64,000 nt of DNA from Candidatus Kaiserbacteria bacterium (GTDB lineage Bacteria > Patescibacteriota > Minisyncoccia > Phycocordibacterales > UBA918). Position 1 is the first letter of the stretch. Every line of letters begins with the position of its first letter. The stretch lies in assembly GCA_016204695.1 (NCBI GenBank), contig JACQKD010000008.1, positions 33,178-97,177 of the forward strand, read 5' to 3'. A model generated the notes under the pieces. It had not been told where the DNA came from. It made no database searches and saw only the letters and a program-made list of their open reading frames with translations. Shown in pieces: positions 7,346-44,156 of this stretch. The position numbers and the translations under genes were made by a program.

Positions 7346-7416
7346 AGCGGGGTGGAGGAGAGGTACCTCGGGAGGCTCATAACCTCCAGGCCCGGGTTCG
7401 ATTCCCGGCCCCGCAA
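7346..7416 (+). tRNA. tRNA-Met (anticodon CAU), initiator-like
   Basis: Manual cloverleaf: acceptor agcgggg/ccccgca, U8, D stem gagg/cctc, anticodon stem ggagg/cctcc with loop cuCAUaa, T arm ccggg-ttcgatt-cccgg. The 1:72 position is a mismatch (A:A) and there is an A11:U24 pair; both are hallmarks of bacterial initiator tRNA. CCA is not encoded. Confidence 0.7.
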
Positions 7417-7431
7417 CAAGGGAAAAGAAGC

Positions 7432-8175: not shown

Positions 8176-8249
8176 GTCGGCGTAGCTCAGCTGGTTAGAG
8201 CATCTCACTCATAAAGAGAAGGTCGGAGGTTCAAATCCTCCCGTCGACA
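8176..8249 (+). tRNA. tRNA with CAU anticodon (elongator tRNA-Met or lysidine tRNA-Ile2)
   Basis: Acceptor gtcggcg/cgtcgac (one G-U pair), D arm gctc-agctggtta-gagc, anticodon loop cuCAUaa, T arm ggagg-ttcaaat-cctcc. No CCA encoded; a T-run follows. Confidence 0.7.
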
Positions 8250-8331
8250 CACTGTTTTTGAACAGTTAACCGGTATACTCTGATTGGAGCCGTGGTACTT
8301 TCGCATATCAAAAGAGAAAGGGGTGTGAGTC

Positions 8332-17840: not shown

Positions 17841-17927
17841 GGAGGGTTCGCATAGCGGTCGAGTGCGCGACCTTGGAAAGGTCGTATGGGGGAAACCCCA
17901 TCGAGGGTTCGAATCCCTCACCCTCCG
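17841..17927 (+). tRNA. tRNA-Ser (anticodon GGA)
   Basis: Acceptor ggagggt/accctcc with discriminator G, anticodon loop uuGGAaa, long variable arm tatgggggaaaccccatc, T arm gaggg-ttcgaat-ccctc. Confidence 0.8.
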
Positions 17928-18347
17928 CAACAGCAATTTCTGAACGCTTCTGCGTTCTGAAATTGCTGTCCGGCATGGGATGGTCGGGATTCGAAAAGCG
18001 GAAGAAAACAGTCTGGGAGACTGTTTTCTGAGCTGGGGTCGCGAGTCGTTATGAGCGGAGCGAATTACGAACTCGTGACCGAATCCCTCACCCTCCGCAA
18101 AACAAGGAGACAAAGGCGTAGCATTTGGCGACTATGTTTTTGCGAGAGGGTGAGGGATTTGAAGGACGGACTGGAGCGAAGCGGAAGGAGTCGGGGTCGC
18201 GGAATTTTTCTGAGGATACGAAGAAAAATATCCGTGACCGAATCCCTCACCGGCGGCGCGCTGAAGTGATAATCTTTAATATCTGTCGGACGGAATCTGG
18301 CGTGGTATGCTGTCTATAATTAGCAGTATATTCACTTGTGATTCCTC

Positions 18348-23526: not shown

Positions 23527-23925
23527 TTACCACGGCCAGTATCTTCGCATGGCAGAAAAACTTCCCTCGTTTCTGTCTCCTTCTGTGAGAATGGTATGGA
23601 TCTCTTGGGGCGATAGCAGACCATTGTACAGTTTTCCATTTATATACGTATGATAGTACGGCACTGTCGGCCCGGCCGATATTTTGTAATGGTAGATGCT
23701 GACAGGATTTCCCTTAGATTCTCCGGTCAATATGTTAAATTTCTGATACGAGGCATCGGAGGATCGCCCCATTTCTTTTTTTAGGAAACTGAGGCTCATA
23801 CGCTGTGCATACTTTTTCATCCGATGACGTTTAATTAGGCGTGGTCCGAATGTACAAATAATGATAATGCCTAAAAAGAGCAGTCCTTCGACTGTAGCTG
23901 TAAGTAAAATGTCTATCGGGTACAT
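23527..23925 (-). CDS. hypothetical membrane-anchored protein (low-GC islet)
   Basis: 132 aa with an N-terminal TM helix, no recognisable family, and AT-rich codons unlike the flanking sequence. Confidence 0.35.
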   Translation of the reverse strand: MYPIDILLTATVEGLLFLGIIIICTFGPRLIKRHRMKKYAQRMSLSFLKKEMGRSSDASYQKFNILTGESKGNPVSIYHYKISAGPTVPYYHTYINGKLYNGLLSPQEIHTILTEGDRNEGSFSAMRRYWPW

Positions 23926-24543: not shown

Positions 24544-24969
24544 TTATGGCGATTTAGAATTCGTTACCAAAACATTCTCATGCTTGCGACAGATAAGGTA
24601 AGCTACAATTAATCCAACCGAAATGTTGATTATAACAAAAGCCGGTGCAGCTATAAATTCTGCGCCGCAATGGCTTTGAGAATTTTGACAACCATTGATA
24701 TCTAAGTGGTAAGTTAAACCGATAACGACGAAAGGAAAAAGTGCACATAGCCCGCCTATAAGTGGTAACAGCCAAAAGATTTTTTTGCCGATGTTCATTC
24801 TGTAAAACTGTACTGAAAAGTACCAAAACGGGATGAGCAATATGGCAAAAAATGAGACCGCTACTGATCCAAACACCACAATGTCTTCAGACTGGTTAGG
24901 AGAATACAGTGAGACAAGGAACATTATCAGTGCGAAAATAAAAAACAAAATTGGAATTGGTGGTTTCAT
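24544..24969 (-). CDS. hypothetical polytopic membrane protein (low-GC islet)
   Basis: 141 aa, 3-4 predicted TM helices, AT-rich, no recognisable family. Confidence 0.35.
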   Translation of the reverse strand: MKPPIPILFFIFALIMFLVSLYSPNQSEDIVVFGSVAVSFFAILLIPFWYFSVQFYRMNIGKKIFWLLPLIGGLCALFPFVVIGLTYHLDINGCQNSQSHCGAEFIAAPAFVIINISVGLIVAYLICRKHENVLVTNSKSP

Positions 24970-40520: not shown

Positions 40521-43500
40521 ATGGGCGATATTTTGAGTATGCAAGAAGGGAGAGAGATAAAAAAGACGCCAAGCGGGGAGAAAACCGACACTGCGAAGCG
40601 GGAGGAGGAAGTTTTGCAATTCTGGAAGGAGAACGGGATTTTTGAGAAGTCGCTTGCGAAAGAGGCGCCGAACGGAGAGTTTGTATTTTATGACGGGCCG
40701 CCGTTTGCGACGGGGCTTCCACACTATGGCCATGTGCTTGGCAGTACGGTCAAGGACGTTATTCCTCGGTATAAGACTATGTGTGGCTTCCATGTGCGGC
40801 GCGTCTGGGGCTGGGACTGCCACGGCCTGCCGATTGAGAACATGATCGAGAAGGAGCTCGGTCTGAAGTCGAAGAAGGACATTCTTGAAATGGGTATCGA
40901 CACATTCAACGAGGCCTGTCGTGCGGCGGTGATGCGGTTTGCCGACGAGTGGGAGAAATATGTGGATCGTATCGGAAGATGGGTGGAATTTCGCGGAGCG
41001 TATAAGACGATGGACAATTCGTACATCGAGTCCACATGGTGGGCTCTGAAGCAGATATACGAGAAAGGACTCCTCTATGAAGGTCGCAAGGTGCTCTTGT
41101 ACTGTCCGCACTGCGAGACCCCACTCTCGAAAGCCGAAATCGCGATGGATAATTCGTACAAGGAAGATCTAACGCAAGCAGTAACGGTAAAATTTAAAAT
41201 AGAAAATCCTGAAAAGCTTGGCCTCCAGGGAGACACATATCTTCTTGCTTGGACTACAACTCCGTGGACGCTTCCCGGGAATGTTGCCCTTGCTGTTAGA
41301 CCAGATATTAAGTATGTTCTCGTATGCACTCTGAATGTTTCAAAGCGTGCCAAAGAAGGTCTGGTTGAGTATGAGAATGTGATTATCGCCGAGGATATAT
41401 TTGAGAATCTTTATTCAGAAAAAAACACAGATCCTAAAAAACTTGGCTTTGGGTTAGTGTATGCACACCACCAGAAGGAGGGAGAGGAGCCGATTAAGGG
41501 GCCGGAGTCGGTAAAAACCTTTTTGGGGTCTGATCTAGAAGGTCTTTCTTATCGTCCGCTTTTCGATATCCCGAAAGTCGTTGCTCAACAAAAAGAGAAA
41601 GCGTTCACAGTTCTACCTGCGGACTTTGTCACGACAACAGAAGGTACTGGTATCGTGCATACTGCAGTGATATACGGCGAGGACGACTATCAGCTCGGAC
41701 TTGCAAACGATTTGCCGATGGTGCCGCTTCTCGACGCGAGTGGAAATTTCAACGACGACGCTCCTTCAGAAATTCGAAGACAGTATTTTAAAAAGGCCGA
41801 GAAAACAATAATAGAATATTTAGATAGCAAGAATCTAATCTTTACGGAAGAATACACACACAGCTATCCGCATTGCCATCGGTGCGGCACGGCGCTCATC
41901 TATAATGCGCTGGTTTCGTGGTTCATCAATATCCAAAAGGTCAAAGACCGGATGCTTGCGACGAACGAAGATATCAACTGGGTGCCGAGTCACCTGAAAG
42001 AAGGTCGGTACAAAAACATCGTGGAGAACGCGCCCGATTGGACCATTTCGCGCAATCGCTTTTGGGCATCGCCCATGCCGATTTGGAAAAATGCGGAAAC
42101 CGGCGCACTCACCGTCATCGGCTCGTTTGAGGAACTGGAAAAACACACAAAGCGTTCGGGCAATACGTACTTCCTGATGCGCCATGGGGAAGCACTTTCA
42201 AATACCACCAACACACATAATCACGATCTGTCGGTCAAAAATCCGCTTACCGAAAAAGGCAAACAAGAAGTCGAGCGTACGGCCGAAATGTTGAAAGACA
42301 AAAATATTCAGTACATTTATACGTCTCCGATGGAGCGTGCGCGGGAGACTGCGGCTATGCTTGCGAACACACTCGGTCTTTCCGCAGACCGCATCGTTGT
42401 CCACAACGGCCTGACCGAAGTGAACGGAGGAATCTTTGAGGGAAAGCCGATATCCGACTACCATGCGTATTTCGCAACACGAACGGAACGCCTCACGAAG
42501 ACGCCGGAGGACGGGGAAAATTGGATGGATACGAAACGTAACATCACGTCGGTCTTGTATGAAATCGAGGAGAAGCATGCGGGGGCGGGTGTCGTACTCG
42601 TGTCTCATAACGGCCCCCTCCAGATGCTACAGGCGGGCGCAAAGGGATTGGATACAGCAGAGACGGCGAAGATAATGGAAGACAAAGCGTACTTCGTTGA
42701 ACCGGGAGATGTCCGTGAGTTTGACTTTACGCCGCTTCCGCATAACAAAGACTACGAGCTTGATTTTCATCGGCCGTATATCGACGGTGTCACGCTCGTT
42801 GACGAAAGCGGTGCGGAGCTTGCGCGCGCGCCGGAGGTGATAGACGGGTGGGTGGAATCCGGCTCGATGCCGTTTGCGGAGCGACACTATCCGTTTGAGA
42901 GTACGGACGAGTTTGAGCCGAAAGAGAACAAGGCATATCCCGCTGATTTCATCGCCGAATACATCGCGCAAACGCGCACATGGTTTTACTACATGCACGC
43001 GGTTTCGGTGCTTCTTTTTGATAAGCCGAGTTTCAAGAATGTGGTGACTACCGGTACGATTCTCGCGGCTGACGGCTCGAAGATGAGCAAATCGAAGAAG
43101 AACTTTACCGACCCACTATTGGTTGTAGATCAATTTGGCGCTGATGCGCTCCGCTATTACCTTATGTCGAGCGTCGTGATGCAGGCGGAAGATATGAACT
43201 TCCGAGACGAGGAACTGCGCGAAGCGCACAATCGAGTCGTGCAGATGCTGTGGAATACGTACACATTCTATGACATGTACAAGGGCGACAGTCTTTCGGA
43301 GAAATTGCCGGACGAAAGCTCGTCGGTGCTCGATAGATGGATACTCGCGCGGCTCAATCAGCTGGTTGCGGAGACAACCGACGCTTTCGAAATATACGAC
43401 ATGCCCCGAGCGACGAGGCCGATACGCGAGTTCGTCGAAGATTTTTCCACGTGGTATATCCGCCGCTCGCGAGATCGGTTCAAGAGCGAGGATGCAAAAG

Positions 43501-44156
43501 ACCGCGCGTATGCTGTTGCGACGACGCGGTATGTGCTCTTGACGCTCTCGAAGCTCATCGCGCCCGTGATGCCGTTCATCGCCGAGAGTATTTATAAAGG
43601 AGCCGGCGGCGAGAAAGAAAGCGTGCATCTTGAGACATGGCCGGAGGCGGGGCAAGTTGACACAAAACTCATTGAAGATATGTCAGACGTTCGAAATATC
43701 GTATCTCTTGCATTGGAGGCACGAAGCAAAGCAGGTATCAAAGTGCGCCAGCCATTGGCGGGGGTTATTGTGCGTGTCGACTCGGTCATTTTTGAAAATC
43801 AGGCGCTCATCGAACTCGTCAAGGACGAGATCAATGTAAAGGAGGTGGTGTCTACGAGGACATGGTCCGAGTCGGTTGTGCTCGACACAACAATCACCGA
43901 ATCTCTCAAGCAAGAAGGCATGGCGCGAGAGCTTATGCGGGCGATCCAGGAGCTTCGCAAGACGGAGGGACTGGCGCCGAGCGACCGTATTGCACTCATC
44001 ATAAAAGCGCCGGAAGAGGGGAAGACAATGATTGAAACGCACAGGGCTGACATCATGCGCACGACGGGAGCGGACGTGCTTCTCCTTGCAGATACCGAGG
44101 GCACTCCGGTCACCATTGATGGCGCGCAGTACGTTGTTCGTGTGGAGAAGAAATAA
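40521..44156 (+). CDS. ileS: isoleucine--tRNA ligase carrying an inserted histidine-phosphatase (PGAM-like) domain
   Basis: HIGH (PHYGHV), CP1 editing region, KMSKS (KMSKSKKN) and anticodon-binding domain are all present. At 1211 aa it is long for IleS. Between WTISRNRFWASPMPIW and WVESGSMPFA sit about 190 aa with RHG, SPMERARETA and VSHNGPL motifs of the histidine phosphatase superfamily. Confidence 0.85.
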   Translation: MGDILSMQEGREIKKTPSGEKTDTAKREEEVLQFWKENGIFEKSLAKEAPNGEFVFYDGPPFATGLPHYGHVLGSTVKDVIPRYKTMCGFHVRRVWGWDCHGLPIENMIEKELGLKSKKDILEMGIDTFNEACRAAVMRFADEWEKYVDRIGRWVEFRGAYKTMDNSYIESTWWALKQIYEKGLLYEGRKVLLYCPHCETPLSKAEIAMDNSYKEDLTQAVTVKFKIENPEKLGLQGDTYLLAWTTTPWTLPGNVALAVRPDIKYVLVCTLNVSKRAKEGLVEYENVIIAEDIFENLYSEKNTDPKKLGFGLVYAHHQKEGEEPIKGPESVKTFLGSDLEGLSYRPLFDIPKVVAQQKEKAFTVLPADFVTTTEGTGIVHTAVIYGEDDYQLGLANDLPMVPLLDASGNFNDDAPSEIRRQYFKKAEKTIIEYLDSKNLIFTEEYTHSYPHCHRCGTALIYNALVSWFINIQKVKDRMLATNEDINWVPSHLKEGRYKNIVENAPDWTISRNRFWASPMPIWKNAETGALTVIGSFEELEKHTKRSGNTYFLMRHGEALSNTTNTHNHDLSVKNPLTEKGKQEVERTAEMLKDKNIQYIYTSPMERARETAAMLANTLGLSADRIVVHNGLTEVNGGIFEGKPISDYHAYFATRTERLTKTPEDGENWMDTKRNITSVLYEIEEKHAGAGVVLVSHNGPLQMLQAGAKGLDTAETAKIMEDKAYFVEPGDVREFDFTPLPHNKDYELDFHRPYIDGVTLVDESGAELARAPEVIDGWVESGSMPFAERHYPFESTDEFEPKENKAYPADFIAEYIAQTRTWFYYMHAVSVLLFDKPSFKNVVTTGTILAADGSKMSKSKKNFTDPLLVVDQFGADALRYYLMSSVVMQAEDMNFRDEELREAHNRVVQMLWNTYTFYDMYKGDSLSEKLPDESSSVLDRWILARLNQLVAETTDAFEIYDMPRATRPIREFVEDFSTWYIRRSRDRFKSEDAKDRAYAVATTRYVLLTLSKLIAPVMPFIAESIYKGAGGEKESVHLETWPEAGQVDTKLIEDMSDVRNIVSLALEARSKAGIKVRQPLAGVIVRVDSVIFENQALIELVKDEINVKEVVSTRTWSESVVLDTTITESLKQEGMARELMRAIQELRKTEGLAPSDRIALIIKAPEEGKTMIETHRADIMRTTGADVLLLADTEGTPVTIDGAQYVVRVEKK

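Follow-up and report, generated by a model that had tools for sequence, protein, structure and literature searches.

A histidine phosphatase domain nested in the type-2 isoleucyl-tRNA synthetase of a Candidatus Kaiserbacteria bacterium and its relatives in the Candidate Phyla Radiation

Aminoacyl-tRNA synthetases have been studied as thoroughly as few other enzymes; members with extra domains are already known, and such domains have repeatedly exposed new biology, e.g., editing and signalling. The hydrolytic modules of synthetases, i.e., the editing domain in connective peptide 1 (CP1), the INS domain of ProRS and YbaK/AlaX, also occur as free-standing proteins; they hydrolyse aminoacyl esters on mischarged tRNA, whereas the module described here is a predicted enzyme of phosphoryl transfer without a known role in editing. 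A precedent for an isoleucyl-tRNA synthetase (IleRS) with an extra catalytic domain exists in the NCBIfam family ileS_w_GNAT (NF040702), and the mycobacterial bifunctional RNase H/acid phosphatase (Rv2228c type, NF005567) joins a nucleic-acid enzyme end to end with a CobC-like phosphatase. The type-2 IleRS, which are insensitive to mupirocin and known from structures of the Thermus thermophilus (1ILE/1JZQ) and Priestia megaterium (8C8U) enzymes, share the domain order Rossmann fold, CP core, CP1, CP2, CP3, anticodon-binding domain and C-terminal domain. Here we describe a window of 64,000 nucleotides (nt) on contig JACQKD010000008.1 of a Candidatus Kaiserbacteria bacterium (Candidate Phyla Radiation (CPR)/Patescibacteria, class Paceibacteria), in which the ileS gene (40521..44156, + strand) encodes a type-2 (eukaryote/MupA-like) IleRS of 1211 amino acids (aa) with this same domain order and with a phosphatase nested in CP3. 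The CP3 of the T. thermophilus enzyme has an 8-residue loop and a zinc knuckle (CxxC...CxC) where the window protein has a phosphatase of ~204 residues and no knuckle. The sequence and the predicted fold show, as far as they can, a two-enzyme polypeptide in which an IleRS has received, midway in CP3, a branch-1 histidine phosphatase of the PhoE/PspA/CobC type. What is new is thus not the presence of an extra domain as such but the nested, intact phosphatase, its counterpart in a split operon, the exchange of the cassette between hosts and the parallel acquisition by valyl-tRNA synthetase (ValRS). We found no description of a fusion of a synthetase with a histidine phosphatase in the full-text literature, a search that left subscription-only papers aside, and likewise no description in the literature of a ValRS of Gracilibacteria with such a domain.

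The nested cassette comprises aa 543-746 (42147..42758, + strand). Pfam recognizes in it a His_Phos_1 domain (PF00300) at aa 551-718 with an E-value of 1.5e-30 and 106.8 bits (gathering cut-off 21.7), located between two stretches of tRNA-synt_1. An alignment of the protein with T. thermophilus IleRS (1ILE) pairs aa 471-542 with residues 412-479 and aa 747-810 with residues 488-547; ~204 residues therefore stand in place of the 8-residue loop formed by residues 480-487. The alignments with the IleRS of yeast and of Candida break at residues 492 and 501, respectively, i.e., in the middle of CP3, whose boundaries in crystal structures are 459-526 in the yeast enzyme (PMC7955072) and 473-534 in that of Candida (PMC7191050). 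An earlier note on this DNA, made from the sequence alone, had described a PGAM-like histidine phosphatase domain inserted into the catalytic core of a 1211-aa IleS at 42150-42760. The length of the protein, the coordinates and the presence of an intact domain all hold, and the site can now be narrowed to the CP3 subdomain. All of the motifs on which that description was based were found again (WTISRNR at aa 507, RHG at 554-556, SPMER at 602, TEVNGG at 632, SHNG at 695 and WVESGS at 777). The expansion that it reported between the conserved blocks, about 270 residues against about 90 in Escherichia coli, is real, although the distance is 254 residues and type-2 IleRS form the fairer comparator.

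The insert is immediately preceded by the CP2-CP3 linker, directly after which CP3 begins; the linker motif WTISRNRFWASPMPIW occupies aa 507-522 and is followed by the N-terminal half of CP3 at aa 523-542, the two together spanning 42039..42146 (+ strand). In yeast IleRS this linker forms part of the wall of the pocket that takes up the A76 end of tRNA and reveromycin (PMC7955072). For contacts between CP3 itself and tRNA, nothing specific was found in the literature on IleRS-tRNA structures. Downstream of the insert, the C-terminal half of CP3 (LDFHRPYID...) leads into the adenosine-binding Rossmann strand with WVESGS (aa 747-782; 42759..42866, + strand). Both junctions carry motifs, SGN (aa 546-548) and PLPHN (aa 738-742), which are conserved within the nested family in an alignment of 72 sequences and were not seen in the aligned IleRS of T. 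thermophilus or P. megaterium. The cysteines of the CP3 zinc knuckle are absent from the window protein (42087-42146 and 42759-42848; WKNAETGAL... and ...VDESGAEL); they are kept in T. thermophilus, in relatives with a split gene arrangement (see below) and in some relatives with a nested domain, where they flank the insert on both sides.

An AlphaFold2 model of aa 501-790, built with the family alignment, reached a mean predicted local distance difference test score (pLDDT) of 89 and a predicted template modelling score (pTM) of 0.85, with 95-99 for the phosphatase domain and values >90 at both junctions. A near-full-length AlphaFold model gave similar results (pLDDT 89.3, pTM 0.82; 92-97 for the insert). 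The insert is thus modelled as a discrete and confident fold, like that of PspA, PhoE and CobC. A Foldseek search against the Protein Data Bank (PDB) ranked PspA (4IJ5/4IJ6), PhoE (1H2E/1EBB), CobC (6E4B/6NRU), GpgP (4PZ9) and TIGAR ahead of the true mutases, with a probability of 1.00 for 4IJ5, 1H2E, 6E4B and 4PZ9 and TM-scores, normalized to the target, of 0.70-0.76. PhoE/YhfR (1EBB, 1H2E), PspA and CobC are also the best sequence matches of the insert (E about 1e-9), and they share with it the RHG...R...E...H signature and a small cap. Nevertheless, the insert is only 19-27% identical to these enzymes and differs from them in being nested in another enzyme or, in its relatives, encoded directly upstream of ileS. 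Its scores remain far below the cut-offs of the NCBIfam equivalogs for PspA (53.7 vs. 350 bits), CobC (67.9 vs. 162.9) and SixA (TIGR00249; 39.9 vs. 74.5), and the CobC-like half of the Rv2228c-type protein, which is matched at 77 bits (cut-off 326), is fused to RNase H end to end and not nested as here. A phosphoglycerate mutase was considered and rejected, because the best dPGM score is 79 bits against a cut-off of 225, E633 is followed by V-N-G and not by R-H-Y, and the neighbours in fold space are phosphatases. The label "PGAM-like" is therefore right for the superfamily and wrong for the mutase type. Given these fold neighbours, the V-N-G sequence and the low equivalog scores, the insert is best predicted to be a phosphatase-type branch-1 histidine phosphatase that lies outside all characterized subfamilies.

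The catalytic residues were followed in a census of 236 IleS-embedded copies. The RHG motif, with R554, the nucleophile H555 and G556 (42180..42188, + strand), is present in all 229 copies that cover the position and is invariant in alignment A1. R606 of the phosphate pocket (SPMERARETA; 42336..42338, + strand) occurs in 236 of 236 copies, the general acid/base E633 (LTEVNGG; 42417..42419, + strand) is Glu in 226 and Asp in nine of the 236, and the second catalytic histidine, H696 (VSHNG; 42606..42608, + strand), is kept in 233 of 234. Where all five positions are covered, the full R-H-R-E/D-H pentad is found in all but one of the copies (226/227). In an alignment of 72 homologues R554, H555, G580, S602, R606, E633, E666 and H696 are invariant and N561 and R674 are conserved at ≥90%, while the remainder of the insert averages only ~38% identity. 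Relative to its syntenic orthologue L001, which lies in the same purD-ileS-recO arrangement and encodes a protein that is 76% identical, the insert has a ratio of nonsynonymous to synonymous substitutions (dN/dS) of 0.081 at a dS of 0.95; the synthetase core gives 0.03-0.12. The active site of the phosphatase thus appears intact and, as judged from these substitution patterns, is under strong purifying selection.

The nested domain is not restricted to the window. PF00300 was detected in 120 of the 120 best homologues (51-100% identity; from NCBI, JGI, ENA and Logan assemblies), which are assigned to Kaiserbacteria, Paceibacterota, Parcubacteria and Patescibacteria. Among the GTDB species genomes, 460 loci were confirmed by region-restricted alignment, and the best 80 of these 460, including Kaiserbacteria, Nomurabacteria, Adlerbacteria, Zambryskiibacteriota and Paceibacterota, span aa 501-790 completely. 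The phosphatase-bearing IleRS is therefore, on genomic grounds, the norm across a class of the CPR, i.e., in hundreds of species. The architecture is unusual, as the earlier note had it, when compared with model organisms but not within this class, and the survey of orthologues that the note proposed revealed the same insertion in all close homologues. Metagenome assemblies raise a priori the possibility that an assembly chimera or a frameshift has fused a phosphatase gene to ileS, and this is the only point in favour of an artefact. Because all close homologues carry the insert, mis-assembly is excluded: the 120 homologues and the best 80 GTDB loci have the same junctions, which are thus shared across independent assemblies, the orthologue that is 76% identical is syntenic, and the reading frame is uninterrupted with a dN/dS of 0.081. 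An artefact has, therefore, next to no probability. The bifunctionality is hidden in current annotation, since NCBI names these proteins only "class I tRNA ligase family protein" while the architecture is plentiful in databases.

By its sequence, the host protein is the housekeeping IleRS of this bacterium. It scores 837.7 bits with the ileS model TIGR00392 (equivalog cut-off 621.4), and Pfam finds tRNA-synt_1 (E 3e-124, in two stretches), Anticodon_1 and DUF5915 besides His_Phos_1. The closest solved structures are the type-2 enzymes 1ILE of T. thermophilus (E 7e-206) and 8C8U, IleRS2 of P. megaterium (5e-201), while the type-1 enzyme 1FFY is matched at only 2e-91; DUF5915 is present at aa 1118-1210 as the C-terminal domain typical of type 2. 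By sequence the closest NCBIfam sub-families are MupA/MupB-like, although the scores for the mupirocin-resistance IleRS MupA and MupB themselves (NF000257/NF000258; 661 and 680 bits) are below their "exception" cut-off of 1900. Pfam detected no GNAT domain in the window protein, and its score for ileS_w_GNAT is 328.6 bits against a cut-off of 1999; the inserted enzyme and its chemistry are not those of this precedent. The HIGH signature is present as HYGH (aa 68-71; 40722..40733, + strand) in the Rossmann fold and KMSKS at aa 854-858 (43080..43094, + strand), both located by motif search, with H57/G59 and K843/K846/S847, respectively, invariant in alignment A3. The editing motifs WTTTPWTLPGN (aa 243-253) and GTGIVH (aa 375) in CP1 are invariant across 72 sequences. 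Pfam places the anticodon-binding domain (PF08264) at aa 938-1080, which together with the type-2 C-terminal domain occupies 43332..44150 (+ strand). These features indicate that the protein is a type-2 IleRS that has, by its sequence, retained the HIGH, KMSKS and editing motifs. An NCBI protein (P0001) from Candidatus Kaiserbacteria bacterium is 100% identical, again annotated only as a class I tRNA ligase family protein. The longest open reading frame (ORF) begins at the ATG at 40521 (MGDILSM...); the NCBI version is 1205 aa long and begins at Met7, the second methionine, at nt 40539.

The insert also has free-standing relatives. When the insert alone served as the query of an exhaustive phmmer search, 9242 representatives were matched with E ≤ 1e-3, 573 of them with E ≤ 1e-10 and 21 with E ≤ 1e-30. 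The best 150 of the 9242 include IleS proteins or fragments thereof and free-standing proteins of ~190-210 aa with 31-39% identity. The flanking DNA was examined for five of the free-standing relatives (P0171, P0242, P0244, P0225 and P0182), which belong to separate clusters at ≤ 50% identity. In all five the gene order is ArgRS, His_Phos, IleS (931-976 aa, without PF00300), a small ORF and RecO, and the stop codon of the phosphatase gene is 1-9 nt from the start of ileS or overlaps with it. The IleS of L085, a locus of this split form with a phosphatase of 190 aa, has an ordinary CP3 with a zinc knuckle and no insert. The IleS genes of the split form are 35-55% identical to each other and to those of the nested form, and they interleave with different lineages of the nested form. 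The termini of the free-standing proteins (M..NN.YF..RHG and ..GELRKL) coincide with those of the insert (SGN.YF.MRHG and AEVREL.F). Since the free-standing proteins start and end at the borders of the insert, the latter represents a whole gene's worth of protein, and the most economical interpretation is that what was once an operon partner of ileS has moved into CP3. Gene order thus marks the phosphatase as a genomic partner dedicated to ileS, and this linkage, whatever its history, has been kept over very deep divergence.

The cassette has not been inherited strictly with its host. At core identities of 85-90%, insert identity can be as high as 0.86 or as low as 0.35, which is the saturation floor. 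The IleS P0004, for example, has a core that is 88% identical to that of the window and 53% identical to that of P0140, but for the insert the values are 36% and 59%, respectively; P0005 and P0006 show the same incongruence relative to P0123. Likewise, the cores of P0025 and P0087 are 91% identical and their inserts 35%, whereas P0087 and P0043 have cores that are 77% and inserts that are 71% identical. Since insert identity does not track host identity, the cassette has been replaced horizontally between IleS genes at a fixed site with preservation of the core. In the comparison of the window gene with its orthologue L001 (8001-11627), synonymous divergence (pS) is 0.68-0.69 over aa 30-542 and 0.52-0.54 over aa 548-930, and this step near the N-terminal border of the insert suggests a breakpoint of intragenic recombination.

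Related phosphatase domains occur at other sites of IleRS and in a second synthetase. In the IleS lineage of P0250 (six cluster members on contigs of up to 1.06 Mb) CP3 is intact and without an insert, and the phosphatase domains are located behind the WFESGSMPYA/HYPF loop and where the anticodon-binding domain begins. P0255 has one copy late in CP3, one after HYPF and the start of a third, and P0243 has a copy in CP3 and one in the anticodon domain; overall, the domain thus occupies three sites in IleRS. P0131 is a ValRS with four phosphatase copies. Of its 120 best ValRS homologues ~70 carry PF00300 (Gracilibacteria and Peregrinibacteria; 1030-1626 aa), some of them in 2-4 copies, mostly in the CP3-equivalent just after GHRIPVWY (62 instances) and in some cases in CP2. 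The inserts of IleS and ValS are 0.25 identical to each other, compared with 0.33-0.37 within each host group, and those of the P0250 type are ~0.30 identical to either. These low identities argue for several independent acquisitions, and the pattern points to independent entry of related domains into other sites of IleRS and into ValRS. Among the ValRS with a single copy, and in contrast to IleS, the catalytic Glu is missing in 20 of 57 hosts, in some of them together with the second His, with R-H-R kept, which suggests that such lineages may possess a pseudo-phosphatase or a changed chemistry. In this sizeable minority of the ValRS domains (P0278-P0393) the Glu is replaced by Gly, Ala or Ser and the second His sometimes by Asn, and signatures of the RHRSN type recur in several clusters.

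Further in-frame domains were noted in these enzymes. P0232 (JGI; 1066 aa, on a contig of 11293 bp) has an IS200-like Y1 transposase in frame in CP1 (aa 340-461), a phosphatase in CP3 and a GNAT domain after HYPF. Some ValRS relatives carry PF04480 (DUF559, endonuclease-like; P0299 and P0334) or, among P0299, P0334 and P0308, PF00216 (HU-like). The class Ia synthetases of the CPR seem to be hot spots of in-frame domain insertion. The TsaC/Sua5 proteins (threonylcarbamoyl-AMP synthase) of Patescibacteria, P0395-P0511, are fused to an Ogt methyltransferase domain (the commonest partner), TruB, a 2H cyclic phosphodiesterase, methylpurine glycosylase (MPG), NUDIX, GNAT or His_Phos. The TsaC-His_Phos fusion P0200 was considered as a link to adenylate-forming enzymes and discounted, because TsaC is fused to so many unrelated enzymes in the CPR.

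With respect to function, we tentatively favour a phosphomonoesterase that acts in cis and clears phosphate hindering the charging of tRNA; this reading includes several sub-variants that differ in the presumed substrate, and we would call it possible, at somewhat less than even confidence. The enzyme would be metal-independent, with phospho-His555 as the intermediate of the reaction and E633 in the role of acid/base. Because only the residues of the phosphate pocket are conserved, substrate recognition is probably either loose or accomplished by the synthetase scaffold, and the substrate may thus be presented by the latter and not by the phosphatase domain. The effect would be to clear a phosphate by which charging is blocked or reversed. 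Among the candidate substrates, the A76 end of the bound tRNA in a 2'/3'-phosphorylated or pyrophosphorylated state comes first, as this end has to be free for aminoacylation; the nucleotide by-products AMP and pyrophosphate (PPi) come second. The earlier note had guessed at a substrate related to nucleotides or aminoacyl-adenylates, or at a moonlighting role, and these conjectures agree with the candidates considered here. PhoE-type enzymes have a broad specificity for nucleotides and sugar phosphates. In a given lineage, one class Ia synthetase (IleRS in this one, ValRS in Gracilibacteria) may carry the activity to the site of tRNA and adenylate chemistry, and because only one synthetase per lineage carries the domain, the activity could serve tRNA charging in general and not isoleucine in particular. 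Taken together, the nested form, the two-gene operon and the parallel case of ValRS would constitute a genomic signature of a functional link between phosphoryl transfer and tRNA charging, for which no description was found in the accessible literature. A bolder version, which we regard as rather unlikely, holds that the phosphatase is an integral, so far unrecognized step of tRNA charging in the CPR to which IleRS and ValRS have converged. The target would then be a phosphate on A76 (a 2'/3'-phosphate, a cyclic phosphate opened elsewhere or a pyrophosphate installed by a toxin) or PPi/AMP, and cassette exchange would maintain diversity, perhaps because toxins that target tRNA drive an arms race. 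If this holds, a novel type of quality control or repair would be linked to synthetases, and it could explain how ultra-small symbionts sustain translation with minimal repair and nucleotide metabolism.

Several observations weigh against such a role in charging. We know of no branch-1 histidine phosphatase that acts on the 3'-phosphate ends of RNA or on PPi. The ArgRS and MetRS encoded in the same window do not possess the domain. The variety of insertion sites and the free exchange of cassettes speak against a finely tuned geometry, and the loss of the Glu in 20 of the 57 single-copy ValRS hosts implies that catalysis is not always required there. Moreover, since the CPR fuses small enzymes promiscuously, as illustrated by the partners of TsaC, fusion alone is weak evidence of coupling. 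For the removal of PPi it is not decisive that one Parcubacterium has been drawn with an H+-PPase (PMC5220378). With respect to tRNA repair, a preprint places the Patescibacteria among the lineages with canonical CCA-adding enzymes and is silent on loss of the HD domain.

The domain could instead be a passenger, i.e., an autonomous housekeeping phosphatase of broad specificity that is expressed together with ileS, was at the outset its operon neighbour and came to be captured in a permissive loop, with no role in aminoacylation and with selection preserving the activity as the cell's copy of that enzyme. This is the main rival; we consider it doubtful, though well worth weighing. CPR genomes do fuse unrelated small enzymes to genes of translation, conserved operons of functionally unrelated genes exist around ileS, e.g., ribF-ileS-lspA in E. 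coli, and the restriction of conservation to generic phosphate-pocket residues, the swapping of cassettes between hosts with cores that are only ~52% identical and the variation in insertion site and copy number would all be expected of a passenger. It fits less well with a linkage to ileS that, split or nested, lasts across a divergence of IleS down to 35% identity, with the independent entry of a like domain into ValRS and into other loops of IleRS, or with junction motifs that are conserved and modelled as rigid; multiple or catalytically altered copies in ValRS would also be odd for a simple housekeeping enzyme. A regulatory role, in which a protein phosphatase (SixA/PGAM5/Sts-like) or a sensor of phospho-metabolites tunes IleRS through its phospho-His state, for example by undoing an inhibitory phosphorylation of the synthetase or of a partner, seems improbable to us. 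Small branch-1 members such as SixA are indeed protein phosphohistidine phosphatases, the insert has a weak SixA-like match (TIGR00249, below cut-off, see above), kinase toxins phosphorylate synthetases (HipA acts on GltX and HipT on TrpS), and fast, episodic diversification of cassettes is typical of interfaces of conflict or regulation. However, a stoichiometric phosphatase within its own substrate would be unusual, the neighbouring genes showed no kinase partner, and the nearest folds are those of small-molecule phosphatases.

Two further explanations fare worse. That the domain is a non-catalytic structural module, offering a phosphate-binding or tRNA-contacting surface, is very improbable: the ValRS hosts that lack the Glu, and in some cases the second His, and yet retain R-H-R would suit it, but the pentad is kept in all but one of the IleS copies and this, with the low dN/dS, points to selected turnover in the family of the window gene. 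Still less probable, indeed barely credible, is a selfish in-frame mobile element, intein-like or homing, which is tolerated or removed after translation. The conflict between insert and host phylogenies at a fixed site and the other mobile-type domains found in frame in CPR synthetases (the Y1 transposase of P0232 and PF04480 in P0299 and P0334) are what such an element might leave behind. However, Pfam detected no Hint/intein family, endonuclease or transposase in the window protein, there are no repeats at the borders of the insert, and no Rfam hit or intron-like RNA was obtained there, so that an intein, intron or transposon insert was rejected. In addition, the residue that follows PLPHN is Lys in the window protein (Lys or Asp in the family) and not Cys, Ser or Thr, and the purifying selection on catalytic residues would not be needed for a selfish spacer. 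On balance, a cis-acting phosphomonoesterase in the service of tRNA charging remains the reading that we tentatively prefer.

The same gene contains a second anomaly in its CP1 editing-domain region (aa 201-450; 41121..41870, + strand; TTTPWT at aa 245, GTGIVH at aa 375). The GC content decreases to 0.40-0.42 at 41150-41600, and that at third codon positions (GC3) is 0.416 for aa 201-450 compared with 0.64 in the rest of ileS, i.e., the effect resides at synonymous sites. This agrees with the earlier note, according to which CP1 is richer in AT than the rest of the gene. In the other genes of the window, 100-codon windows have a mean GC3 of 0.651 ± 0.075 and only 0.6% of them are at or below 0.42. 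For 77 orthologues the difference in GC3 between CP1 and core averages -0.033 ± 0.048 and is nowhere below -0.15, so that the window gene, at -0.224, lies beyond them all. L001, however, has the same dip in CP1 (about -0.18), and the dip therefore predates the split between the two; recent horizontal transfer as its cause is thereby excluded. Over aa 201-283 the closest relatives are no longer ahead of distant ones in identity. Within CP1 there is also a variable, lineage-specific segment rich in Lys, Glu and Asn (aa ~271-331; 41331..41513, + strand), which is extra relative to the solved type-2 IleRS and is unalignable and poorly modelled: aa 284-330 have an identity of ≤ 0.35 to any homologue, the matches of homologues break at ~283/330, and the pLDDT is 47-73. 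Part of the GC3 dip tracks low constraint. Nevertheless, an outlier of this size, together with the change in affinity and the uneven pS, makes it plausible that a CP1 segment was replaced by recombination at an older date, and of the possible causes of the dip intragenic recombination seems the likeliest. The mosaic origin at which the earlier note took the AT-richness to hint is thus partly supported: the compositional anomaly is real, and it is not recent, as it is shared with a sister lineage.

The window as a whole is a typical segment of a small CPR genome with genes for LigA, GatA, a class I ribonucleotide reductase, serine hydroxymethyltransferase, ArgRS, PurD, IleS, RecO, MetRS, RecA and FtsK. 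In the neighbourhood of ileS the order is ArgRS ... IleS, RecO and a DUF11 protein, which is the setting also found around the split-form genes. Two tRNA genes with a CAT anticodon are located ~760 nt apart at 7346-7417 and 8176-8250, one of which could encode a lysidine-converted tRNA-Ile2, a minor substrate of IleRS, and a tRNA-Ser(GGA) gene is present at 17841-17928. Two short ORFs on the - strand, 23527-23925 and 24544-24969, have a GC3 of 0.46 and 0.38, respectively, compared with the window mean of ~0.65, and may represent foreign DNA or non-genes.

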